In this document: positions 1,545-42,468 of the stretch, piece by piece | Position numbering within the stretch: the stretch's first letter is position 1 | How the letters are laid out: each line of letters begins with the position of its first letter | Assembly: GCA_963814885.1 (NCBI GenBank) | Contig: CAWFEO010000003.1 | Location: forward strand, 4,973 to 68,972 | DNA from: an uncultured Alphaproteobacteria bacterium | GTDB taxonomy: Bacteria; Pseudomonadota; Alphaproteobacteria; Rhizobiales; Xanthobacteraceae | Reading direction: 5' to 3' | Length of the DNA: 64,000 nt | Made by a program: the position numbers and the translations under genes | Notes under the pieces: generated by a model | Databases searched by the model: none | What the model saw: the letters and a program-made list of their open reading frames with translations, nothing else | What the model was told of the DNA's origin: nothing

Positions 1545-3260
1545 TCAGGCGCCGCGCCGCGTGCCGAACTTCGGCAGGCTATTGGCGATGCCCACCACGG
1601 CGAAGGTGATCAGCAGCATGGTCAGGCCGAGAACCGCGATGGCCGCGAGATCCCCACTTTCGTTGAGATCGTATATGAGCACCGACATAACCTTTGTCTT
1701 CGAGGTAAACAGCATGATCGCCGCCGACAATTCACGAATCACGCCGACAAAGATAAAGCACCAGGTGGCGATCACGCTGGTGCGCAACAGCGGCGCGGTG
1801 ATCTGCCAGAGCGCCCGCAGCCGTGACGCACCGAGTATGCGACTGGCATCCTCGAGTTCCGGGTGCACGGCGCGGAAGGCCGATTGCAATTGTTGATAGG
1901 CTGCCGGCATCGCCAATGTGACGTAGGCGATCAGCAATATCCATAACGTGCCATAGAGCACGAAGGGCGGCCGTGTGTAGCTAAAGAACAACCCCACCCC
2001 CAGCACGATGCCCGGGATGGCGATCGGCGCGGTGGCGAGGAAGGAGAGCACGCGATGCCCGGTCATCGCCTTGCGCGCGGTGATGTAGCCGATGACCACG
2101 GCGAGGATGGTGCCGCAGGTGGCGGCGAGCAGGCCGAGGACGAACGTGTTCTTGATCGCCAGCGAGGTCGCCGATAGTTCAAAAAAGACGAAATCGATGT
2201 TCTGCAGCGTGAAATTATTGACGCTGATGATGCGCGACGCAAGCTTGGAAAAGGTGGCGTTGAGCAGCGCGAAATAGGGCAGGAACACCGGGCACATCAG
2301 CACCAGCATGCTCACGCCCAGCGCCAGCCACTTGTAGCGCCCGAGCCGCACGACGCGCGGGTCGCTGTTTTTGGCGCCGACCACCGAATAGCCGCGCCGG
2401 CCGAGCACCATGTGCTCGGCCCGCAGCAGGATGACGGTCAGCACGAGCAACGGCAGCGAGGCGGCGGCGGCGAGTTCGGGCTTGGGCGGGTACTGGAACA
2501 GGCTCCAGATCTTGGTGGTCATAGTGTGAAAGCCGGCGGGCAGCGCCAGGATCGCCGGCGACCCGAACAAGGTCATCGCCTGCAAAAATGCGACCAACGC
2601 GCCCGCGAGCAACGCCGGCAGCGCCAGTGGAATGGTGATGCGACGCGCGGTGTCCCAGGTGGTACCACCGAGAATCGCCGACGCATCTTCCAGATCGCCG
2701 GGCGTGCGGTCGAGCGAGTTTGCGACCAGGACGAAGACATAAGGGAAAGTGTAGCAGCTGATAACGAAAACGAGACCGGCAAACGAATAGATGTTGAGCA
2801 AGTGCACGCTCGGCTCGGCTCCGGCCAGATCGCGAAAGAGTTGATTAAGCAACCCGCTGTTCGGCGCCGCCAGTAGCTCCCAGGCGATGGCGCCAAGAAA
2901 TGGCGGCGTCACGAAAGAGGCCGTTACCAGCAGGCGCACCGTACGGCGCAATGGCATGTCGGTGCGCGACACGAGCCAGCCCATGGGTGCGGCGACAGCA
3001 CAGCAAATGAGGGCGGAGAACGTGGCGAGCTCGAAGGTGGTGAGCAGTGGATCGAGATAGGCGGCGTCGATTACCAGCCGTTGGAAATTCGCCAGGGTGA
3101 AGGCGCCGGTCTTATCGGTGAAAGCGTACACCGCAAGCCACGACAATGGCAGCACGATCAACCCGCAAAGCAGGGCAGCGAACAGCAACAGCACCGGCGT
3201 CGACGGGTCGAGGCCGAACCGGCGCCTTTCAAGGGGAGCGGTGGTCGCGAGCGTTGTCAT
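1545..3260 (-). CDS. ABC transporter permease, two-domain Fe3+/thiamine/2-AEP (FbpB-like) type
   Basis: About 12 TM segments; two EAA-like loops (LEDASAILGG, LEDASRILGA); start placed at MTTLATT (ATG 3260), downstream of the intergenic hairpin. Confidence 0.9.
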   Translation of the reverse strand: MTTLATTAPLERRRFGLDPSTPVLLLFAALLCGLIVLPLSWLAVYAFTDKTGAFTLANFQRLVIDAAYLDPLLTTFELATFSALICCAVAAPMGWLVSRTDMPLRRTVRLLVTASFVTPPFLGAIAWELLAAPNSGLLNQLFRDLAGAEPSVHLLNIYSFAGLVFVISCYTFPYVFVLVANSLDRTPGDLEDASAILGGTTWDTARRITIPLALPALLAGALVAFLQAMTLFGSPAILALPAGFHTMTTKIWSLFQYPPKPELAAAASLPLLVLTVILLRAEHMVLGRRGYSVVGAKNSDPRVVRLGRYKWLALGVSMLVLMCPVFLPYFALLNATFSKLASRIISVNNFTLQNIDFVFFELSATSLAIKNTFVLGLLAATCGTILAVVIGYITARKAMTGHRVLSFLATAPIAIPGIVLGVGLFFSYTRPPFVLYGTLWILLIAYVTLAMPAAYQQLQSAFRAVHPELEDASRILGASRLRALWQITAPLLRTSVIATWCFIFVGVIRELSAAIMLFTSKTKVMSVLIYDLNESGDLAAIAVLGLTMLLITFAVVGIANSLPKFGTRRGA

Positions 3261-3285
3261 GGGAGCGGCGTCGCGCGGGCGCCCT

Positions 3286-3309
3286 CCCTCTCCCCGCGCG
3301 GGGAGAGGG
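3286..3309. repeat. REP-like palindrome CCCTCTCCCC-GCGC-GGGGAGAGGG
   Basis: Perfect 10-bp stem between the SBP and permease genes; resembles the CCCTCTCCC...GGGAGAGGG intergenic palindromes of Rhizobiales. Confidence 0.75.
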
Positions 3310-3325
3310 AAAGCGACCGCGCAGG

Positions 3326-4393
3326 TCAAACGTGGAACAGCTTGACGTAGTGCGCCTTGATCTCCTCGGCGTGTTTGAGGACGCCGGCGGCATCGTCTTT
3401 CATCAGCTTGATTTTGCTGAGCGGCACGCGGCCGGGCTTATCCTTGACATGCGGATGCGCGGAGCGCAGACCGCCGAGGTTGACGTTGAGCTGCTGGCAC
3501 TCCGGCGTGAAGCAGTAGCTCTGGAACAGTCGCGCGGCGTTCGGGTTGGGCGCGGCCTTGAAGATTCCGTTCGGTCCGACGATGAGTGGCGTGCCTTCGG
3601 TGGCATAGACCGGCTCGACCGGCTTGCCCGATTCCTTCTCGCGGAAGATCAGGTACTCGACGCCGTCGGCCTGCACCGCGCGCTCGCCAAGCGCTAGCTT
3701 CTTCGGTGGAACGGAGGCGGACTGCACCTGCAGGACGTTCTGCTTGGCGAGCTTCTCGAAATAACCCCAGCCGAGATCGCGCGACATCTGGAATGTTGCG
3801 GTCATGATGGTGCCGCTGTAGCCCGGATGCGCCTTGACGATCTTGCCTTTCCATTTCGGATCGAGCAGCTCGGCAAAGCTCTTCGGCGCCTCGTCCTTCT
3901 TAACCAGTTTGGTGTTGTAGGCGATGACGCAAAGGAAGATGCGGAAACTGGCGAACATGCCGTCCGGGTCTTTGTGATCGGCAGGATAGAACTTGGCCAC
4001 GTCTTCCGGCACATAGGGCGCCAGCCAGCCCTTGTTCTTCCAGAGCACCAGATGCGAGGCATCCGACGAATTCGCCAGATCGACCGCGTGGATGTTGCTG
4101 GAATATTCCTGCGTGATCCGTTGCAGCAGCCGCTCGGCGCCGGTGCGTTCGACTTGAACCGGCACACCAGGATACTTTTTCTCAAAATTCTTTGCGATCT
4201 GCTCGGCCACCTTAAGATCGATCGAGGTGTACCAGACCACCTTGCCTTCCTTCTTGGCCGCCGCGATTAGCTGCGGCGTAATCGCACTCGGCGGCGGCGC
4301 GGCCGAAACCACGCGGGTGGAGAAAGCGGTGCCAGCCGCGAGCGCACTCGACCCGATCAGTATGCCTCGGCGCGTAAACCTTGAGCCACTCAT
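3326..4393 (-). CDS. ABC substrate-binding protein, Fe3+/polyamine (SBP_bac_6-like) family, Tat-exported
   Basis: Twin-arginine FTRRGILIG; AAKKEGKVVWYTS, IAYNTKLV, APNPNAARLF motifs. Confidence 0.9.
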   Translation of the reverse strand: MSGSRFTRRGILIGSSALAAGTAFSTRVVSAAPPPSAITPQLIAAAKKEGKVVWYTSIDLKVAEQIAKNFEKKYPGVPVQVERTGAERLLQRITQEYSSNIHAVDLANSSDASHLVLWKNKGWLAPYVPEDVAKFYPADHKDPDGMFASFRIFLCVIAYNTKLVKKDEAPKSFAELLDPKWKGKIVKAHPGYSGTIMTATFQMSRDLGWGYFEKLAKQNVLQVQSASVPPKKLALGERAVQADGVEYLIFREKESGKPVEPVYATEGTPLIVGPNGIFKAAPNPNAARLFQSYCFTPECQQLNVNLGGLRSAHPHVKDKPGRVPLSKIKLMKDDAAGVLKHAEEIKAHYVKLFHV

Positions 4394-4452
4394 CGACGTA
4401 CCCTCCTTGATGATTTGATCTAGTTTTTCTTATTCAACGAAATTTTGAAGCC

Positions 4453-5514
4453 TCATCCGGCCAGCGCCCGGCATCGTTCCGGCGGCAGGTGCAGGAAGAC
4501 TGCGCTGCCTTGCGCGATGTTCTCGCCGGCGCCGGTAACGACCCGAAGTTGCGTGCCGTCCTTGGCTTCAACCATATAGTCACGGCGGTCGCCGAGAAAG
4601 ACCTGTCTCGTTACCGTAGCCGGGACGACGTTTTCGGTCTGTTGCAGGCGGTCGGAGGAGATCGCGATATCGTGCGGCCGGATCGAGACCGCGGCCTCCG
4701 CGCCGGCCTTGACGCTGGCGCCGACGCAGCGCAGCACGACGCCGGCCAAGGCGATATGGGTCTCGTCCTGCCCCCTGCCCTTGATGACGTTGCTCGAGCC
4801 GATGAAGCGCGCGACCCATTCCGAGCGCGGGCGATCGTAAATATCCTCCGGCGATCCGGCCTGCTCGATCTTGCCGGCATTCATCACCGCGATCAGATCG
4901 GCGGTGGTCATCGCTTCGGCCTGATCATGGGTCACGTAAACGGTCGTGTAGCGATACGCGTCGTGCAAGCGCCGCACTTCGAAGCGCATTTCCTCGCGCA
5001 GGTTGGCGTCGAGATTGGAGAGCGGTTCATCGAGCAGTAGCGTCTCGGGCTCTACGATCAACGCGCGCGCGAGCGCGACGCGCTGCTGCTGACCGCCGGA
5101 TAATTCGCCCGGATAGCGGTCGGCCAACGGCGCCAGCCGCGTGGTTGCCAGAATAGCGTCGAGTTTTTGGCGAATAATGTTGCGGTCGAGCTTGCGCAGT
5201 TTGAGGCCATAAATGATGTTCTCCGCAACCGTCATGTGCGGCCACAGCGCATAGCTCTGGAAGATCATCGACATGTTGCGGCGCTCGGGCGGTACGCTGC
5301 CGGCGCTCGACGAAAGCAACTTGTCGCCGACGCGGACTTCACCACCGCTTGGCTCGACGAACCCGGCGATCAACCGTAGAGTCGTGGTCTTGCCACAGCC
5401 AGAGGGGCCAAGCAGGCAGACAAGCTGCCCGTGCTCAACGGTGAGCGAGACGTCGTCGACCACCGCGGTGTCGCCGTAGCGCTTGGTCAAACCCCGCAAC
5501 TCCACCGACGCCAC
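4453..5514 (-). CDS. ABC transporter ATP-binding protein (PotA/FbpC-like, TOBE C-terminus)
   Basis: Walker A GPSGCGKTT, signature LSGGQQQR, LLLDEPLSNLD; GTG start. Confidence 0.95.
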   Translation of the reverse strand: MASVELRGLTKRYGDTAVVDDVSLTVEHGQLVCLLGPSGCGKTTTLRLIAGFVEPSGGEVRVGDKLLSSSAGSVPPERRNMSMIFQSYALWPHMTVAENIIYGLKLRKLDRNIIRQKLDAILATTRLAPLADRYPGELSGGQQQRVALARALIVEPETLLLDEPLSNLDANLREEMRFEVRRLHDAYRYTTVYVTHDQAEAMTTADLIAVMNAGKIEQAGSPEDIYDRPRSEWVARFIGSSNVIKGRGQDETHIALAGVVLRCVGASVKAGAEAAVSIRPHDIAISSDRLQQTENVVPATVTRQVFLGDRRDYMVEAKDGTQLRVVTGAGENIAQGSAVFLHLPPERCRALAG

Positions 5515-33773: not shown

Positions 33774-34277
33774 TCAGAACTCCAGCTTATCCTGCACCGC
33801 CGCTAATCCGACCTTGGCGCAGGCCTCGTCCTTGTCGCCGCCGGGCGCGCCCGCCACCCCGACCCCGCCGAGCAGCGCGCCGCCAGCCTGGATCACCAGG
33901 CCGCCGACCAGCGGCGTCACCCCGGGCAAGCCGGTCAGGCCGGAACCGATCGTGCCGTCCTTGATCGCTTTGACGAACTCGCCGGTGTCACGGGTGAAGG
34001 TCACGGCGGTCCAGGCTTTGCCCTTGGCGATATCGAGCGCGGCCGCCGGCGCGAAACGGTCGCGCAGGCTCGCCAGTGGTGTGCCGAAACGGTCGAGCAC
34101 CACCACGGCGACCTGGAAGCCGTCCTTGCGGCACTGAACGATCGCGGCGCGCGCCAGATCGAAGGCGGCGTCGGGCGAAAGCGACTTGTAGGTGACGACG
34201 CCTTCCGCGGCGCGGGTGGGCGCTGCCGCCGCGATCGTTACCGCGGCGGCGACAACCAGCATGAGACCTTTCTTCAC
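33774..34277 (-). CDS. GlcG/HbpS-like heme-binding protein, exported
   Basis: Signal peptide; VAVVVLDRFG, KAWTA, GGVGVAGAPGGDKDEACA; GTG start 34277. Confidence 0.85.
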   Translation of the reverse strand: MKKGLMLVVAAAVTIAAAAPTRAAEGVVTYKSLSPDAAFDLARAAIVQCRKDGFQVAVVVLDRFGTPLASLRDRFAPAAALDIAKGKAWTAVTFTRDTGEFVKAIKDGTIGSGLTGLPGVTPLVGGLVIQAGGALLGGVGVAGAPGGDKDEACAKVGLAAVQDKLEF

Positions 34278-34315
34278 CTCAGCCTCCCTTGTTACGGAGC
34301 CGGGCCGGCCCCGCA

Positions 34316-34795
34316 TTACGGCTTGATATAAGTCCAGCCTTGTTCCTGCAGCTCGGTCAGGCGCACCACGCCGCCGGGCACGATGCGCGCCTCGGAGACG
34401 ATCTTGATCGGATGCCCTTCCTTCTTTTCCATCTTGCCCATGGTAACGTGGCAGGCCGAATAGGTCAGCTTCGACGGAAAAGCCACCTTCTTCAGATTCG
34501 CCAAGCGGTCCTTCACTGGCGACTTGTCGTCACGCAACATCATCAGACCCGGCCCATAAGCCACCACCTCGATTTCCGCCGTCTCGCCTTTCTCCTGATA
34601 AGCCTGCATTATGTTCTCGACATTGTTGAGAGCGAGAGCCATCTTCGCCTTGTCGTTCTGGCTAACCTGGAACACGATGTGGTGCACCTTTCCGCTCGCC
34701 TTTTTCATATTTTCGTCGGCATGACCCGGCGTCGCCGCCATCAATCCAAGAGCAAGTGCGGCGACAGCCAACACTGCGTATTTTGAACGCTTCAT
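34316..34795 (-). CDS. DsrE-family protein with signal peptide
   Basis: HHIVFQVS, ALNNVEN, IEVVAYGPGL, SACHVT, VPGGVVRLTELQEQGWTYIKP. Confidence 0.88.
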   Translation of the reverse strand: MKRSKYAVLAVAALALGLMAATPGHADENMKKASGKVHHIVFQVSQNDKAKMALALNNVENIMQAYQEKGETAEIEVVAYGPGLMMLRDDKSPVKDRLANLKKVAFPSKLTYSACHVTMGKMEKKEGHPIKIVSEARIVPGGVVRLTELQEQGWTYIKP

Positions 34796-34832
34796 TTCAG
34801 ATTCCTCCCGATGTTGAACTTGCGATTTCTTG

Positions 34833-35306
34833 TTATGGACGTACCAGCGTGTAGCCCTTCTTGGTCAAAGTGAGGATGCGGGCGACACCGACTTGCACCT
34901 TCACGGCTTTCGGATTGATATTCACGTGTTTGCCTTCACGCTCGAGCGTATCGACCGTGTTCATGCAGATGTCGAACTGAACGCCTTGCGAGATCAGGCT
35001 GTCGACCCGCGCGCGATTGGGGCTTTCCGCGCGCAGCAGGTCGATGCCGGCGCCGAACGCCACCACCTCGATGGCGATCTTGTCGGTCCCATAGGCCTTC
35101 AACAGATTGTTGGCGACGCTGAGCACCAGCGCCTGCTTGTCCGGTGCGCGGTCGGAGAGTTGCAGGACCAAATGGTGTTCGGCGAACGGCTTGTCCGGCG
35201 ACGGCGGGCTTGCGGGCGTCTGCGCGGCAGCCGGCGACAAGCCAATGGCCGTGACCGCCAGAACGAGAGCGGAAAACCGCGCCAAACGAGCGAGCGCAAC
35301 GGACAT
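34833..35306 (-). CDS. DsrE-family protein with signal peptide (second paralogue)
   Basis: HHLVLQLSD, LSVANNL, IEVVAFGAGI, DICMNT, GYTLVRP. Confidence 0.88.
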   Translation of the reverse strand: MSVALARLARFSALVLAVTAIGLSPAAAQTPASPPSPDKPFAEHHLVLQLSDRAPDKQALVLSVANNLLKAYGTDKIAIEVVAFGAGIDLLRAESPNRARVDSLISQGVQFDICMNTVDTLEREGKHVNINPKAVKVQVGVARILTLTKKGYTLVRP

Positions 35307-35314
35307 ACGTTCCT

Positions 35315-37060
35315 CTATCCGGCAAAGCCCGGATTGTTCGCCACGCCCTTGAGCGCGACCTGATTGAATTTCTTAGGCTTCGCGGTCTTTGCGCCGCGTA
35401 GGTAGTTCGCGAACACGTCCCACACCGGCTTGCCAGCTTGCGGATTGACCGAGGCCCAGCCGGCGACCTTATAGGTCTTGCCGGCTTCGAGCTTGCGGCC
35501 ATTGTCGAGCGTCAAATCTGAAATGCGCTGGCCGACTTTTGCCGCCGGCGCGCAGGCGTAGTCCATGCCGCCGATGCGCACCATATCGCCGCCCTGCTGG
35601 CGATAGGGATCGGGATTGAACAGGTTGTCGCAGACGTCTTCCATGATCGCCTTAATCTGGGCGCCGGTCATTTCCTGCACATAGACTTCCGGATAGGTGA
35701 TTGCGGTTTCCGACAACACGTCGCCCATGGTGACGGGCTCTCCCGGCAACACCGTATTGCCCCAGCGGAAGCCGGGCGAAAATGCCAATTCGGCATCGAG
35801 CTCATGGCGCAAGGCGTCGCAGATGAGCTGATCCATGGTGCCGTTGAAATTGCCGCGCCGGTACAGGAGATCGCCCGCCACCGCCAGCTTCTCGGAAAAC
35901 TGCGCCGCATGCGGCTTGCTGGCGCGATCGATCAACGCCTGCATTTCGGGATCGGGTTTCAGAAGCCCGGCATAGACCGGCAACAGGCGATAGCGCGCAT
36001 CCTTGACCGCGCCCTTGGCCAGTTCGAGATCGAGCACGACGAGGAACTTGCCGGTCGATCCGCCGTTGGCCACCAGAGTCTGGCCGCCGGAATTCTTCAC
36101 CGTCACCGGCCGCGGCACCACGTCGTGGGTATGGCCGCCGAGGATGACGTCGATGCCGGTGACATTGCTTGCGAGCTTGAGATCGACATCCATGCCGTTG
36201 TGCGAGAGCAGGATGACGGCGTCGACCTTGTCCTTTTGGCGCAATCCATCGACGACTTTCTGCATCTCGTCGTCGCGGATGCCGAAGGTCCAATCGGGCG
36301 TAAAGCGCTTGGGATGAGCGACCGGCACGTAAGGAAACGCCTGGCCGATGACGCCGATGCGGTGCCCACCGACTTCTTTCACGGTTGCCGGCTTGAACAC
36401 GCGGCCCGAGGCGGCGTCGAACGCCGGCTTGTCGTCGAACGCCGCTTCCTCGGTCAGGAACACGTTCTGCGCCAGGAACTCGCCCTTGAAGCGCTTGAGA
36501 TTGGCGCGCAGTTTTTCCTCGCCATAGGTGAATTCCCAATGGCCGGTCGTCAGCTCGACGCCGAGCAGATTGGCAGCATCCACCATGTCTTCGCCGTGCG
36601 TCGCATTAGCAACGCCGCTGCCCTGCCAGAGGTCGCCACCGTCGAGCAGCAGCGATTTGCCGCTGCCGGCGTCGGCACGCAGGCGGTCGATCAGGGTCTT
36701 GAGGTGCGCGAAGCCGCCGAGCCGGCCGTAACGGTGCGCGGCTTCAGCAAAATCGAGATAGGTGAAGGCATGCGCCTGCCGGCTGTTCGGCGCGATGCCG
36801 AAGTATTCGAGAAAAGCCCGCCCGACCAGGTGCGGGGGCTTGCCCGCCATGGCGCCGACGCCAAGATAGATGCTCGGCTCGCGGAAATAGACCGGCGTCA
36901 GCTGCGCGTGGGTGTCGGTCATGTGCAGCACGCGCGCGTTGCCGAAGCGGCCGATGTCATAAAGATCATCGGCCGCGGCGTCCGCGCCGCGGCTGATTCG
37001 AGGAATGGCACCAGATATCGCCGCGGCCGTGAGCGCCTTCAACAGGTCGCGGCGACGCAT
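35315..37060 (-). CDS. soxB: Thiosulfohydrolase SoxB
   Basis: Tat MRRRDLL; LHMTDTHAQL..VYFREPS, DGGDLWQG, GHWEFTYG, LSHNGMDVD, GGHTHD, RRGNFNGT, QQGGDMVR. Confidence 0.96.
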   Translation of the reverse strand: MRRRDLLKALTAAAISGAIPRISRGADAAADDLYDIGRFGNARVLHMTDTHAQLTPVYFREPSIYLGVGAMAGKPPHLVGRAFLEYFGIAPNSRQAHAFTYLDFAEAAHRYGRLGGFAHLKTLIDRLRADAGSGKSLLLDGGDLWQGSGVANATHGEDMVDAANLLGVELTTGHWEFTYGEEKLRANLKRFKGEFLAQNVFLTEEAAFDDKPAFDAASGRVFKPATVKEVGGHRIGVIGQAFPYVPVAHPKRFTPDWTFGIRDDEMQKVVDGLRQKDKVDAVILLSHNGMDVDLKLASNVTGIDVILGGHTHDVVPRPVTVKNSGGQTLVANGGSTGKFLVVLDLELAKGAVKDARYRLLPVYAGLLKPDPEMQALIDRASKPHAAQFSEKLAVAGDLLYRRGNFNGTMDQLICDALRHELDAELAFSPGFRWGNTVLPGEPVTMGDVLSETAITYPEVYVQEMTGAQIKAIMEDVCDNLFNPDPYRQQGGDMVRIGGMDYACAPAAKVGQRISDLTLDNGRKLEAGKTYKVAGWASVNPQAGKPVWDVFANYLRGAKTAKPKKFNQVALKGVANNPGFAG

Positions 37061-37094
37061 CGCGCGGGTCTCCCGGTTACGCTGCCAGCTCCGA

Positions 37095-37409
37095 TCAGCG
37101 GACGACAGCGTTCTTCCAAAGCTTTTTCTGCTCTTCGGCCTGCGCGATGGACGCGTTGGCCAGCGCCTCGGCTTTCATGGCGTGCTTGACGGCGTCGTCA
37201 AACTTGCCGGCGTCAGCCGCCTTTTTCGCGGCTTTTAGCTCACTGGCCGTTGTCAGCCATGCAGTCTTCATGGCGAGCGACTTTTTGTTCGCCGCCTCGG
37301 CCTTGGCATAGACCGCCTTGAAGTCGTCGGCCGACGCAGCAAACGCGGCCGTCACGAAGCCACCGACCGAAAGGACAACGGCCAACAGGATCAAAACACG
37401 AGTGCGCAT
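37095..37409 (-). CDS. soxK: SoxAX-binding protein (SoxK/SAXB)
   Basis: 104-aa exported Ala/Lys-rich helical protein (AEAANKKS..AWLTT..LKAAKKAADAGKFDDAVK..AEALA) between soxA and soxB. Confidence 0.75.
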   Translation of the reverse strand: MRTRVLILLAVVLSVGGFVTAAFAASADDFKAVYAKAEAANKKSLAMKTAWLTTASELKAAKKAADAGKFDDAVKHAMKAEALANASIAQAEEQKKLWKNAVVR

Positions 37410-37433
37410 GTTATTCCTCCACATGGGTCCGTT

Positions 37434-38276
37434 TTATGGGCGCGCGCCCGGCCCCGAGATCGGCAGGCCGTTGGCCATGTACGAAAGATAATATTCGACG
37501 TCGCTGTAGAGCTCATCGTTCGGTTTGAGCGGCACCGCGCGCACCTGGCTGTTGCAGGAGGTGATGCGGCGGCTGGTGGTGCCCATGCCGGCCCAGGCCG
37601 AGCGATAGATCGGCAGCGCGTTGAGAATGCCGAGCGCCGGCGCCAGCACCTCGGTACGGATATGCTTACCCGCGCTTTCCACGTGGCAGCTCGCGCAGGA
37701 GAAGTTGAGCTGGCCGCGGCGGGTGTAGAAATATTCCTCGCCCTTCTTGTAGGCGGCGAGCGCGCGCGGGTCGTTCGGGATCTTGATAGACATCGGCTTG
37801 CCGCGCGAGGTGTAGGCCATATAGGCGGTGATCACCGCCATGTCGTTCTTCTTGTAGTCGTAGGGCTTTTCGCCGTTGGCGGTGCGGCACTCGTTGACCG
37901 CCACTTCAAGCGTGATCACTTTGCCCGCCTTGGCGTCGAACATGGGATAGTTCTGGCGGATACCGATGCCCTTGTTCGGGAAGCAATCGGCGTAGGTTTT
38001 GCCGTTCTTGAACGGCGTACTGAACATCTGTTTGCCTTTTTCGACGGCGAATTCGTAGGGCGGGAATTCTTCTTTCGCCTGCCACTGCTTATGCAAGCCC
38101 GCATCCATCGAATAGGGGCCGTTGACAAAATCCTTGAGCGGCACTTTCGGGAACCGCTCCGTGAAATATTTCTGGAACGCCTTCCTGTCCGCTTCGGGGT
38201 TTACGTCACTGGCAGCCAGTAGAGGCTGCGCCGTGCCGACGACAATCGCGACCGCGACGAAAATATTGCGCAGCAT
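37434..38276 (-). CDS. soxA: SoxA cytochrome c, mono-heme type III-like
   Basis: Single CxxCH (SCASCH); first site degenerate (YADCF); YTRRGQLNFSC; catalytic-Cys region RRITSCNSQVR. Confidence 0.93.
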   Translation of the reverse strand: MLRNIFVAVAIVVGTAQPLLAASDVNPEADRKAFQKYFTERFPKVPLKDFVNGPYSMDAGLHKQWQAKEEFPPYEFAVEKGKQMFSTPFKNGKTYADCFPNKGIGIRQNYPMFDAKAGKVITLEVAVNECRTANGEKPYDYKKNDMAVITAYMAYTSRGKPMSIKIPNDPRALAAYKKGEEYFYTRRGQLNFSCASCHVESAGKHIRTEVLAPALGILNALPIYRSAWAGMGTTSRRITSCNSQVRAVPLKPNDELYSDVEYYLSYMANGLPISGPGARP

Positions 38277-38313
38277 TCACCAATCCTCCCTGTCACCCTT
38301 AACTAATCGGGCT

Positions 38314-38628
38314 TTATTGAATCTTGGCCATCAGTGAATCCGATGCGCCTTTATTGTCGACCCAGCTGATTTTCAGCTCATCGCCTTTCTTGCCGCCCTT
38401 GAAGCTGAACTTCAGGTACGGGTCTTTCGAGATGGCCGGCCCCCAAAAAGCGGTAAACACCGTTTTGCCGCCGAGTTCGAACTGCAACACCTCGATGTGG
38501 TGCGCCGGGATGGGCTTGCCGGTTTTCCTATCCTTCACGAAACCGGAATCCATCGGATGCCGGATCAGCGATTGGACCTGCGTCCTGCCGCCGCTCGAGA
38601 CGGCCTTCACGCGAATTGTCGATGCCAT
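38314..38628 (-). CDS. soxZ: Sulfur carrier SoxZ
   Basis: IRHPMDSG..KD..G..IPAHHI, ISKDPYLKF, WVDNKG. Confidence 0.95.
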   Translation of the reverse strand: MASTIRVKAVSSGGRTQVQSLIRHPMDSGFVKDRKTGKPIPAHHIEVLQFELGGKTVFTAFWGPAISKDPYLKFSFKGGKKGDELKISWVDNKGASDSLMAKIQ

Positions 38629-38658
38629 TGCTCTCGCCTCTCTGTTCGATGACGCCGA

Positions 38659-39150
38659 TCAGCCGCCGCAGCCGCCGACGGTGACCTTGACCTCCTTGGA
38701 CGCGCTGTAGAGCTTGCCGTTCGACTCCACGACCGCGACGACCTTGCTGGTTTTGGCCATTTTCAGCCGGTTCGCCACCGCGGCTTCGGTCCCTTCCGGA
38801 ATCTTGTAGGCGGCGGCGAGCACATTGGGATTGTTCAGCACCAGGATGGCGATGGCGGTGACCTTGGGCAGGTTGCTCGAAACCGCGATCGGCACCACCG
38901 CGCCGTTTTCCGCGATTTCCGGCGCGTCGAGACCGATTTTATCCGAGGCGGTCGCGGTCTTGCCGTAGAGCGCTTTCAGCACGTCGGCTTCGCTCTTCTG
39001 CTTGAAGGCGTCCGCCGGCCACCCCTTGGCGTCCTCGGCGTAGACCGGAAACGGGAAGCTGCCGAGGCCAAGCCCCGCCAGGCCGCCGGCGACGGCGCCT
39101 TTCAGGATCATGCGTCGCGCGGAATTGGGCGCGTCCGGAAAACTTTTCAT
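38659..39150 (-). CDS. soxY: Sulfur carrier SoxY
   Basis: Tat ARRMILKG; APEIAENGAVVP; C-terminal swinging arm VKVTVGGCGG. Confidence 0.96.
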   Translation of the reverse strand: MKSFPDAPNSARRMILKGAVAGGLAGLGLGSFPFPVYAEDAKGWPADAFKQKSEADVLKALYGKTATASDKIGLDAPEIAENGAVVPIAVSSNLPKVTAIAILVLNNPNVLAAAYKIPEGTEAAVANRLKMAKTSKVVAVVESNGKLYSASKEVKVTVGGCGG

Positions 39151-39182
39151 TGCATTTTCTCCTTGTTGGCCCACACGCGCGG

Positions 39183-39542
39183 TTAGCGGGTGTAGAGGAA
39201 ATCGACGATAGCCTCGATTTCCTTATCGTTCAGAATGAGATTGCGCTTGAACGGCGGCATCACCGTGAGCTCATTGCGTTTCGTTTCGTCGGAAACGATT
39301 GCGATCAGCTCCTTGCGTTCCGGAAAGCGCTTCTTCATGTCGTTGAGCGCCGGACCGATATTGCCGTTGTCGGGACCGCCCTTGATCGCATGGCAGGTCA
39401 GGCAATTACCTTTGCTGCGCGCGAACGCCAGCTTCTCGCCTTCCGACGGCGCCGCGGATACGGCACTCATGCCCAGCACGAAAGCGCCGAGGACTCCGCA
39501 GGCGATTGCCGCCAGCGCAAATTGCGACTGTCTTAATTCCAT
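39183..39542 (-). CDS. soxX: SoxX cytochrome c
   Basis: KGNCLTCH, GNIGPAL, VMPPF, EIEAIVDFLYT. Confidence 0.93.
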   Translation of the reverse strand: MELRQSQFALAAIACGVLGAFVLGMSAVSAAPSEGEKLAFARSKGNCLTCHAIKGGPDNGNIGPALNDMKKRFPERKELIAIVSDETKRNELTVMPPFKRNLILNDKEIEAIVDFLYTR

Positions 39543-39583
39543 CCTTTTTCCTCCCCAGCGCGTGTGGACCGTTATGCCCGGTC

Positions 39584-39995
39584 CTAATTCGGAATCGTTT
39601 CATCCAGAGATCTCACCGTCGGCGGCGTCAGTAACATTCTTTCCGCCGTTGACTCGATCTTCTTCTTATTAGGACCAGCACAGCCCTTCACGTATTCTTT
39701 TGCCGACGTATCGGGCCGCGGGTCCTGCTACTTAAAGTGGCCGCAGTTAAGTCTGTCCACTTTAGGCAAAGCGTCGCGATCTGCAACGAAATTATTTCCC
39801 ATCATATGGTTGATGTCGAGCACGTAAGCGGTGAGCGCGCAAACGTCGTTGGTCGATTGCGTTCGCGGCGCGAACGACCGCATCGCATGATTGATGATGT
39901 CGAACGGCATCGCGGCGAACGGCCAACTGCCGCCGAGCTCCGGCGCCGTCCGTTGCATGGCCGGCATCCGCTGCGATCGGTGTCCCGGTTGTCAT
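39584..39995 (-). pseudogene. soxD: Decayed SoxD-like cytochrome c
   Basis: GSWPFAAMPFDIINHAM...TNDVCALTAYVLDIN...DALPKV...HFK*QDPRPD...KGC...KIESTAE; in-frame TAG at 39728-39730, homology continues to TAG 39584; no intact CxxCH or signal peptide. Confidence 0.75.
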
Positions 39996-40251
39996 GGCCG
40001 CGAAAAAAATCCGGCGGCGAAGGACCGGCAACGTCATTGGTGTTTGGCTCCCTAGACCAATACATATTCAATTTGTACTATTTGTTTCGGGCCGTCCAGA
40101 ACAAACAGCAGCGCTGGCTTGCCCACGCGCAGGCTCCGCGAACGGTCCGGCGGCTCCGGAAAAAACCTTTGCCGCCAGAACGTTAGACGCGATTGTAATT
40201 TGCGCTGGGCGGATCGGCGGCTCGCGTCATGCGGTCGCAGCCGCGACGCTG

Positions 40252-42468
40252 CTACTTGGTCTCGAAGGCGAACACGCCATTCCAGTCCGCCGGCGGCGGA
40301 TCTTGCTGGAAGGCGGCGCAGCGGGCGGCGTAGAGGTCGCCGAGATGACCGAGGCCGAGCCCGTGGCTTGCCTCGCGGCAACGCAGGATCGCTTCTTGGG
40401 CGCCGGCGAAATCGCGCCGCCGATAGCACGCAAGCACCTCCCCGAAGACAGTCTGAATGTGCTTGAAGCTGTCGCTGCGGGCGACGTCCTCGCGGCCCAG
40501 AATCGTATAGATGTTTTCGGGCTCGGTTTTTCCTTTCACCGTGATGCAATCGAGCTCCAGCACGGCGAATTTCTCCTTCGCCAATTGCGCCGTCTTGGAG
40601 CCGACGACGACGGAAACGCCGTATGATTTGGTCTGACCTTCAAGGCGTGAAGCCAGGTTGACCGCGTCGCCGAGCACCGAATAGTTGAAGCGCAGATCGG
40701 AGCCCATATTGCCGACGACGCATTTGCCGGTATTGATGCCGACGCCGATCTTGATCGGGATGAAGCGCTGGCCGGTCTCTTGGGCGTCCTGCTCGCGCCG
40801 CCGGTTGAGCGTCTCGACGCGGTGGAGCATTTCGAGCGCAGCCTCGCAGGCATTGAGTTCGTGACCCGGATCGTGCAGCGGCGCGTTCCAGAACGCCATG
40901 ATCGCGTCGCCGATATATTTGTCGATGGTACCGTTGTGATCGATGATCGCGTTGGTCATCGGCGTGAGGAAATGGTTGATCAGTGAGGTCAGCCCTTGCG
41001 GGTCGTCCTTGTAGATTTCCGATATGGTGGTGAAGCCGCGCACGTCGCTGAACATGATGGTCATGTCGCGCTCCTCGCCGCCAAGCACGAGCGAATCGTG
41101 CGAATGGGCGAGTTGTTCAACCAGCGATGGCGCCAGATACTGACCGAAAGCCGTGCGAATACGGCGGCGCTGGATCTGCTCGCGGAAATAGTTGATGAAG
41201 ACCAGCGTCAGATAGATGAGGAATGTCGCCAATAGCGGATAACTGGCATCGATGAGGATACGGTGCTCGACGAAGAGGTACCAGGAACCCGCCGCCACCA
41301 CGGCGGCCACGGCGCCGCCCAGGACCAACATCATCGCGGCGCCGAGAATGGGCCCGAGCGCGATGATCGCCAGGCCGAAAATCACGGTAGTGGCCAGTTC
41401 GGCGCCGATGGCGTAGTCGGGATAGACAAGAACCGCGTTGCTCAGCACGCTTTCCAGCACCTGTGCGTGAACCTCGACGCCGGACATCGCTGGATCGATC
41501 GGCGTCGTCTTAATGTCGCGTAAGCCCACCGCCGAGGTGCCTATCAAAACCAGCTTGCGGTTGACCCGGTCGGCCGGCACGCGATCCTCCAGGACATCCT
41601 TGGCCGAGATGTAGCGGGCGGGGTCGTAGTGCGCGAAATGAACATAGAGCTGGCCATTGCGGTCGGTCGGCATGTCGAGACCGGGAACGGCGACGCTGTG
41701 GATGCCGGCGGCATCACTCTTGATCCTGATGGCGCCGGAGTGGGTGACGACGCGCAGCATTTCGAGCGTCAACGCCGGGACGATCTTGCCCTCTGCCTTC
41801 ATCACCATGGGCACGCGGCGCACGATGCCATCGGGTTCGGCGCGGATGCTGAGCATGCCGCGGCCGGCGGCGGCTTTTTCAAGCGCCGGGATATTCCGGA
41901 TCAGACCCGGAAAGGTCATGAGATAGGGGCTCGGGTCGGGACCCATCATGGCGAAGCCGGCGCCCGGCGGCTGCGGGCCGGACCGCGGCAAGCTCAGGTG
42001 GTGACCGGACTCGCCCAGGATCACGCGCGAGCGGTGGATGGCGTCGGCGAAAACGTCGTCATTGCTCGGTAGTTTCTGGAGTTGCGCGCGGGTCTGCGGG
42101 TCGAGATTGCGGAAGCTTTCCGCCGCGACGGCTGGTGACATGCGGTCGGGTTCGGCAAAGATGATGTCGAAGGCGATTGCCGCGCTTCCCAGCTTGGTGA
42201 GCTTGGTGACCAGATCGGCCAGCAGCGTCCGCGGCCACGGCCATTGTCCGAAGGCGGCCAGGCTCGCCTCGTCGATATCGACGATCACGGCCGGCCGCAG
42301 CTTGGCGTCGCGGGGTTTGAGCTCCTGGTAGAAATCGAAGGTGCGCGCGCGCAGGGATTGGAGCGGCCCGGGGTCCCAGATGCGCAAGGCCACCAGCCCC
42401 GCCAACAGGAACAGGCAGACCACGCGGCCAATGCCGAACGACTGCGCCAATCGGTAAAGCTTGTTCAT
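40252..42468 (-). CDS. CHASE2-domain class III adenylate cyclase
   Basis: IVDIDEASL..FGQWPWPR CHASE2, three TM, MFSDVRGFT, IDKYIGDAIMAFWNAP (ATP-specifying Lys), GDAVNLASRLE. Confidence 0.93.
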   Translation of the reverse strand: MNKLYRLAQSFGIGRVVCLFLLAGLVALRIWDPGPLQSLRARTFDFYQELKPRDAKLRPAVIVDIDEASLAAFGQWPWPRTLLADLVTKLTKLGSAAIAFDIIFAEPDRMSPAVAAESFRNLDPQTRAQLQKLPSNDDVFADAIHRSRVILGESGHHLSLPRSGPQPPGAGFAMMGPDPSPYLMTFPGLIRNIPALEKAAAGRGMLSIRAEPDGIVRRVPMVMKAEGKIVPALTLEMLRVVTHSGAIRIKSDAAGIHSVAVPGLDMPTDRNGQLYVHFAHYDPARYISAKDVLEDRVPADRVNRKLVLIGTSAVGLRDIKTTPIDPAMSGVEVHAQVLESVLSNAVLVYPDYAIGAELATTVIFGLAIIALGPILGAAMMLVLGGAVAAVVAAGSWYLFVEHRILIDASYPLLATFLIYLTLVFINYFREQIQRRRIRTAFGQYLAPSLVEQLAHSHDSLVLGGEERDMTIMFSDVRGFTTISEIYKDDPQGLTSLINHFLTPMTNAIIDHNGTIDKYIGDAIMAFWNAPLHDPGHELNACEAALEMLHRVETLNRRREQDAQETGQRFIPIKIGVGINTGKCVVGNMGSDLRFNYSVLGDAVNLASRLEGQTKSYGVSVVVGSKTAQLAKEKFAVLELDCITVKGKTEPENIYTILGREDVARSDSFKHIQTVFGEVLACYRRRDFAGAQEAILRCREASHGLGLGHLGDLYAARCAAFQQDPPPADWNGVFAFETK

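Follow-up and report, generated by a model that had tools for sequence, protein, structure and literature searches.

The sox operon of an uncultured Xanthobacteraceae bacterium, which lies in the 64,000-nt stretch of DNA analysed here (the window), carries a short open reading frame upstream of soxX. This raised the question whether the organism has lost SoxCD and, if so, how the loss came about and where the sulfur now goes. The frame encodes 79 amino acids on the minus strand (39728-39967) and starts with ATG. The SoxD-like motifs that the initial annotation had quoted from it were present in the minus-strand translation, and when its TAG was read through, the frame stayed open to a second TAG. 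The features of this part are as follows.

39584 to 39937, minus strand: soxD pseudogene relic, the last ~113 soxD codons, with the original stop TAG at 39584-39586
39728 to 39730, minus strand: premature TAG in the relic, opposite TGG (Trp) in the congeners G018 and G024, and also found in the metagenome contig L055

The read-through peptide was searched in 40 related genomes, and uninterrupted frames were found in G018 and G024, both of the same genus. With tblastn/phmmer, the relic matched the SoxD proteins of these two genomes with E = 2.7e-35 and 2.6e-34. The identity was 53% over residues 6-126 of the read-through peptide, and the alignment crossed the internal stop. The tBLASTn comparison that had been proposed as a check on SoxD therefore returned a significant alignment (E ~1e-34). 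In both congeners the SoxD gene is located between a molybdoenzyme gene and soxX, and the molybdoenzyme gene is a true soxC (TIGR04555, 660-667 bits; cut-off 420). The DNA was collinear with these relatives over the 3' soxD sequence, the intergenic spacer and soxX (75% and 69% identity), and the relic had no indels against G018 over ~340 nt. The premature TAG aligned exactly with TGG in both, which bears out its reading as a Trp-to-stop change. In the PDB, the sole significant match of the read-through peptide was 2xts_B, the SoxD chain of the Paracoccus SoxCD (E = 8.2e-5), where the relic aligned with residues 75-154; the intact congener orthologue matched the same chain with E = 3.5e-46 over 181 residues. 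Pfam and NCBIfam gave no useful match for the 79-aa frame or the read-through peptide, so that the homology comes from the congeners and the PDB only. Weaker SoxD homology possibly reaches ~39967.

The relic is far from a complete gene. The N-terminal ~165 codons of soxD are absent, and neither a complete reading frame nor an export signal was found. None of the minus-strand frames of 39584-40251 has a CxxCH motif, and the CAGCH of the relatives lies ~35 codons upstream of where the window homology begins, that is, in the missing part. The initial annotation was correct that soxD has lost its haem motif and 5' part. Intact SoxD proteins of this clade are short (~225 aa) and monohaem, with one CAGCH, and the full-length SoxD of Paracoccus is longer and binds two haems. 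Compared with the Paracoccus pantotrophus SoxD (PDB 2XTS chain B), the relic keeps only the C-terminal ~40%, lacks the N-terminus and the haem-binding CxxCH, has an internal stop and evolves neutrally (see below). Based on the congener homology, the 2xts_B match and the collinear DNA, the region 39584-39967 is a soxD pseudogene, as had been claimed, and no functional member of the SoxD family.

Downstream of the relic the sox genes are intact.

39183 to 39542, minus strand: soxX, intact (TIGR04485, 86.9 bits; cut-off 61)
38659 to 39174, minus strand: soxY, intact, with a GGCGG C-terminus (TIGR04488, 159 bits; cut-off 125)
38314 to 38628, minus strand: soxZ, intact (TIGR04490, 126.7 bits; cut-off 76)
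37434 to 38276, minus strand: soxA, intact (TIGR04484, 233 bits; cut-off 110)
37095 to 37424, minus strand: gene for a SoxAX-binding protein (SAXB/SoxK)-like product (NF052674, 48.5 bits, below the cut-off of 95)
35315 to 37060, minus strand: soxB, intact (TIGR04486, 847.8 bits; cut-off 550)
33774 to 35306, minus strand: two DsrE-like genes and an HbpS/GlcG-like gene (Pfam DsrE, HbpS-like)

The SAXB/SoxK-like gene is kept in the sox module of relatives. The genes for the two exported DsrE-like proteins and the HbpS/GlcG-like protein close the module and are conserved in G018 and G024; the synteny of the window with these genomes ends at ~33890, right after the HbpS-like gene. A scan with one genome per species found 19 loci with the SoxD subtype of the window. 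All were intact, with soxC immediately upstream of soxD and soxXYZA..B downstream. The order soxCD-XYZAKB that had been expected of relatives was thus observed in G018, G024 and the 19 species-level loci. These intact modules, from related Xanthobacteraceae and Pseudolabrys-labelled MAGs (G018, G024, L017-L035), have the same gene order as the window and the same upstream element. From SoxX to SoxB the protein identity to the window is 75-87%. They keep the full soxC and soxD, whereas the window lacks ~1.5 kb and retains a soxD tail that is 45-57% identical.

We then inspected the DNA between the relic and the next gene upstream. A promoter and a stub of soxC were spotted by eye and then confirmed with a MAFFT alignment of 14 sequences.

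39938 to 39983, minus strand: deletion junction zone, in which decay prevents exact placement of the break
39984 to 40037, minus strand: soxC 5' stub, which retains ~18 codons of the twin-arginine (Tat) signal region at the N-terminus and the ATG at 40035-40037
40046 to 40052, minus strand: retained Shine-Dalgarno region GGGAGCC of soxC, conserved in relatives as GGTCTAGGGAGCC
40062 to 40099, minus strand: conserved putative sox promoter/operator element CTGGAC-N..-ACAAATAGTACAAATTGAATATGT
40252 to 42468, minus strand: CHASE2-adenylate/guanylate cyclase gene (Pfam CHASE2 and Guanylate_cyc), the upstream neighbour, outside the lesion

The stub was identified by alignment with the soxC starts of 13 relatives; with blastn, the DNA upstream of the relic gave only marginal matches to soxC upstream regions. 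The element at 40062-40099, which can also be given as CTGGAC...ATAGTACAAATTGAATATGT, follows the pattern CTGGAC-N9-10-(A/G)ACA-N-TAG-N-ACA(A/G)(A/G)TTGAATATG. It precedes soxC in 13 soxCD-bearing relatives, 40-110 nt upstream of the start codon, and from this conserved position it is probably the sox promoter/operator. The window was nearly identical to L026-L028 over the element, the Shine-Dalgarno region and the first soxC codons, and a chance resemblance of the stub is unlikely. The soxC homology stops at ...GACAACCGGG (39984) and clear soxD homology begins from CTCGGCGGCAGTTGGCCGTTC (39937), with ~45 nt in between that are too decayed to assign. The missing DNA amounts to ~1.5 kb by the coordinates of G018 and includes the soxC body and ~165 soxD codons. 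The soxC start codon now opens an 81-aa frame (39792-40037) that runs out of frame into the soxD relic. The initial annotation had stated that no soxC follows. This holds for the soxC body, and no intact partner gene adjoins the relic, but ~18 codons from the 5' end, the ATG, the Shine-Dalgarno region and the promoter remain.

A scan for promoters and terminators gave one promoter-like site in the relic and one weak hairpin with a T-run in the stub, both at the level of consensus matches, and the count of terminators was not above that in shuffled sequences. The hairpin (CCGG..CCGG), followed by a run of seven T, is located at 40011-40028 on the minus strand. The T-run is derived with respect to the intact relatives, is common to L055 and is terminator-like at the consensus level only. 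The promoter-like site is sigma-70-like (TCGACA-17-AATAAT, 10/12; 39791-39819, minus strand) and also occurs in L055. Its AATAAT is ancestral coding sequence (GNNF) and its TCGACA is lineage-specific, and the site is possibly a chance match.

Since the sox promoter, the Shine-Dalgarno region, the soxC ATG and ~18 codons are retained, both end points of the deletion lie inside soxCD. This bears on the proposal that soxC and the 5' part of soxD were lost in a recent rearrangement that brought in the cyclase/T1SS block (CHASE2-cyclase, HlyD, PrtD and a 976-aa protein). The proposal draws on the position of the cyclase gene, 215 nt ahead of the soxC ATG, and on the synteny with G018 and G024 stopping near the relic. 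Indeed, the synteny among the three genomes is confined to the sox module, between the promoter and the HbpS-like gene (~33890-39970), and the flanks differ in all of them. The conservation in G018 and G024, however, also stops at the sox promoter, which is therefore the normal border of the module. This border is intact in the window, and so soxCD was not cut by the cyclase/T1SS block. The cyclase block does not begin in place of soxC, as had been written, because the promoter/operator, the Shine-Dalgarno region, the ATG and the ~18 soxC codons lie between it and the relic. In addition, the lesion is old (see below). A rearrangement is unnecessary to explain the loss and, as its cause, very improbable; a deletion internal to soxCD remains the preferred reading.

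An independent copy of the lesion was obtained when a protein search with the 79-aa frame returned an 86-aa product from a JGI metagenome. The corresponding contig, L055 (1136 bp, sample 3300004018), aligns end to end with the window at ~39645-40785. Both have the 3' end of the cyclase gene, the spacer, the promoter element, the soxC stub, the junction and the TAG. In the cyclase coding part, 15/531 sites differed between the two, all at third positions. In the stub and relic, 31/386 sites differed over all positions, and there were indels of 7, 1 and 2 nt. The neutral divergence was ~8% in both compartments. Since the junction and the TAG are common to the window and L055, both the deletion and the nonsense mutation are older than the separation of the two lineages. 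In L055 the 7-nt indel joins the frame of the soxC stub to that of the soxD relic, which results in a chimeric ORF of 86 aa (791-1051). The window version of this ORF is out of frame, and the ORF is thus not conserved between the two.

The same contig speaks to the quality of the assembly. The window comes from a MAG with visible indel errors: on contig C18 (~1750-4500) rpoB is split over several frames, with a longest in-frame piece of 348 aa around the GDKMAGRHGNKG motif, as against frames of ~1400 aa in the relatives. Small indels and frameshift pseudogenes in this genome therefore call for caution, and the indels of 1 and 2 nt relative to L055 may be errors. One could extend this to the lesion itself and suppose that an intact soxCD is really present and that the contig is collapsed, chimeric or a minority deletion variant. 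For the large features, an assembly artefact is excluded by the independent junction in L055, which also has the identical TAG. A mis-join could yield neither a nonsense codon nor 60 lineage-specific changes spread evenly over the codon positions. We regard an assembly or binning artefact as barely credible.

The spread of these changes was determined in a codon alignment of the window, G018 and G024, in which we counted the sites where one genome differed from the other two. At codon positions 1/2/3, the window-specific changes in the relic were 21/21/18. The matching stretch of soxD had 6/9/22 changes in G018 and 6/4/22 in G024. A third-position excess was observed in all nine intact genes of the window's module and was clearest in soxB (32/19/73) and soxA (14/7/32). 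The rate in the relic at positions 1 and 2 was 0.19 per site, at least as high as the third-position rate of the intact neighbours (0.10-0.15). The dN branch, derived from Nei-Gojobori distances, was ~0.25 for the window (G000) and 0.07-0.09 for the relatives. Relative to L055, the relic differed at 9/3/6 sites by codon position, along with the three indels. Neither comparison gave a sign of purifying selection on the relic. Among the 19 intact modules the closest relative of the relic was 57% identical. Judged by its even pattern of change, the relic has been non-coding for essentially the whole branch since the sampled soxCD-bearing relatives diverged. Therefore, the view that the change in sulfur physiology was recent is unsupported; moreover, the lesion is common to a lineage that is ~8% diverged at neutral sites.

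The same data weigh on the possibility that the 79-aa ORF, or the chimera of soxC and soxD remnants, encodes a small protein with a function, as a neo-functionalised C-terminal piece of SoxD. The ATG start, the lack of indels against G018 over the ~340 nt of the relic and the prediction of an ORF at this site by a gene caller in two assemblies are in its favour. The 79-aa ORF, however, has no signal peptide, no haem motif and no family match, and its changes fall evenly on the three codon positions, on the long branch as well as in the comparison with L055. The 7-nt indel, furthermore, alters the N-terminus and the frame in L055. A functional product is therefore extremely improbable, and we retain neutral decay of the relic.

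Next, the assembly of the organism (4.07 Mb, 91% complete, 46 contigs) was searched for SoxCD at other sites. No TIGR04555 match above the cut-off was found in it. With tblastn and congener queries, SoxD residues ~165-283 were matched at the relic locus only, and SoxC or SoxD was not found elsewhere in the assembly except for a 30%-identical SoxC paralog on contig C24. This match was rejected as a displaced soxC (170 bits, against the cut-off of 420) because it scored better as a SorT/SorA-like molybdoenzyme (C24:216381-218484, L001 654-2757; 254 and 235 bits, below the cut-offs). A cytochrome c gene adjoins it. Among the other 24 species of the genus, SoxB was present in 21, and all 21 of these had SoxC above the cut-off. 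The window genome is the only SoxB-positive one of the genus without it. A side observation in G018 was that contigs C11, C13 and C14 gave three identical SoxY-like matches at nearly identical coordinates, from a repeat or duplicated contigs.

These searches support the claim that SoxCD has been lost, within the 91% of the genome that was covered. Another copy could be located in the unassembled ~9%, in which case only the operon copy would be dead and the physiology unchanged; six of the 21 congeners do have a second SoxC, from paralogous soxCD copies. None was found by HMM or tblastn in the 4.07 Mb, however, and the copy in the operon has long been decaying while the rest of the operon was under selection, which fits a settled truncated system with sHdr. 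We consider a hidden second copy improbable, and a genuine loss of SoxCD is the reading followed here.

A loss of SoxCD implies a truncated Sox cycle, for which the remaining genes are in place: soxXA, soxYZ and soxB are intact and above the NCBIfam cut-offs. The initial annotation had pointed to Dsr or sHdr as cytoplasmic routes for the remaining sulfur. DsrA was not found in the genome, and the reverse-Dsr (rDsr) route was rejected for this reason. A complete sHdr-LbpA-type cluster, however, is present on contig C39 (166886-176611; 162016-177992 with flanking genes), which agrees with the cytoplasmic route. It encodes, in order, a DsrE3-like protein, HdrC-, HdrB- and HdrA-like proteins, a 289-aa protein, HdrC- and HdrB-like proteins and a GcvH-like protein, followed by DsrE2 (above the cut-off), another DsrE-like protein and a type III sulfide:quinone reductase (SQR). 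The five HdrC-, HdrB-, HdrA-, HdrC- and HdrB-like genes lie together at C39:167290-173034 and were called with methanogen Hdr family models that are not sHdr-specific, with scores below the cut-offs. They form the set by which sHdr is recognised, namely shdrA with shdrB1/B2 and shdrC1/C2 in one cluster (PMC13500833). The GcvH-like protein of 146 aa (C39:173526-173966) is the LbpA-like component. Two radical-SAM genes and an LplA-like ligase gene for lipoate assembly are found at C39:162016-165936, and a YeeE-type (Sulf_transp, YeeE/SoxT-like) transporter gene flanks the cluster.

In Hyphomicrobium denitrificans, a truncated Sox system is completed by sHdr-LbpA in thiosulfate oxidation, and in the Xanthobacteraceae complete and truncated Sox systems occur in similar numbers (PMC10451225; PMC13500833). 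The inventory of the window genome is the same as that of H. denitrificans (PMC10451225), with intact soxXA, soxYZ and soxB, no SoxCD, a shdrC1B1AHC2B2-like set, an LbpA-like protein, DsrE-type carriers, a YeeE/SoxT-like transporter and lipoate-assembly genes. Unlike the H. denitrificans type, the truncation in the window is visibly secondary, since the soxC stub and the soxD relic are still in the operon. A further difference is that the sox genes of the window lie in a single unidirectional operon, on another contig than shdr, and their function here is predicted. Within the genus, sHdrB1 was found in only 4/25 species: the window's genome, G017, G018 and G024. G018 and G024 have both SoxCD and sHdr. 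G017 (98% complete) has an sHdrB1 that is 89% identical, neither SoxB nor SoxC and only a weak SoxY-like match; this congener seems to have sHdr without a Sox module. In an RpoB-fragment comparison to see whether the sHdr-bearing congeners form a clade, identities of 93-97% gave no resolution.

Taken together, we consider it highly probable that an ancestral complete operon suffered a single deletion of ~1.5 kb in soxCD, and that the relic then decayed neutrally and the truncated Sox system came to pass its sulfur to sHdr. The ancestral operon was soxC-soxD-soxX-soxY-soxZ-soxA-saxB-soxB-dsrE-dsrE-hbpS, an order kept in about 19 related Xanthobacteraceae species. The deletion took soxC from ~codon 19 and soxD to ~codon 165, and spared the promoter/operator, the ribosome-binding site and the soxC start upstream as well as the last ~113 soxD codons downstream. 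What was left then drifted as non-coding DNA, with equal changes at the codon positions, one TGG-to-TAG change and indels in the sister lineage. Transcription of soxXYZA-saxB-soxB presumably still starts at the original promoter and runs through the relic. In the predicted truncated cycle, SoxXA would load thiosulfate onto SoxY and SoxB would release sulfate. The sulfane sulfur bound to SoxY could then not be oxidised in the periplasm and would be passed to the cytoplasm by the YeeE/SoxT-like transporter and the DsrE-type carriers, where the sHdr-LbpA system encoded on C39 would oxidise it to sulfite. The SorT/SorA-like enzyme on C24 is a candidate periplasmic sulfite dehydrogenase for this sulfite. 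Judging from the gene content, the truncated periplasmic Sox system of this soil bacterium most likely feeds the cytoplasmic sHdr.

It is plausible that sHdr came first and the loss of SoxCD second. SoxCD may have been dispensable because sHdr was present, and we infer from the fit with the data that sHdr made it so. A stronger version is that the loss was selected: SoxCD would have competed with sHdr for the SoxY-bound sulfane sulfur once the lineage had both, as G018 and G024 still do, and a precise deletion of soxCD that left the promoter and soxXYZAB untouched would have been fixed. We hold this rather doubtful. If it were true, the genus would hold all the stages side by side (complete Sox only, complete Sox with sHdr, truncated Sox with sHdr, and sHdr without Sox) and would be a natural experiment in swapping sulfur-oxidation pathways.

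[quoted passage not shown] The locus is a well-documented secondary loss from complete to truncated Sox; this is a known pattern and does not involve a new mechanism. It provides base-level evidence for the direction from complete to truncated in one lineage, with both scars visible, the lesion present in two lineages and an sHdr system able to take over in the same genome. When sulfur metabolism is predicted from genomes, this organism should count as truncated Sox with sHdr and not as complete Sox. The finding also flags a genus in which the Sox and sHdr routes coexist or replace each other.
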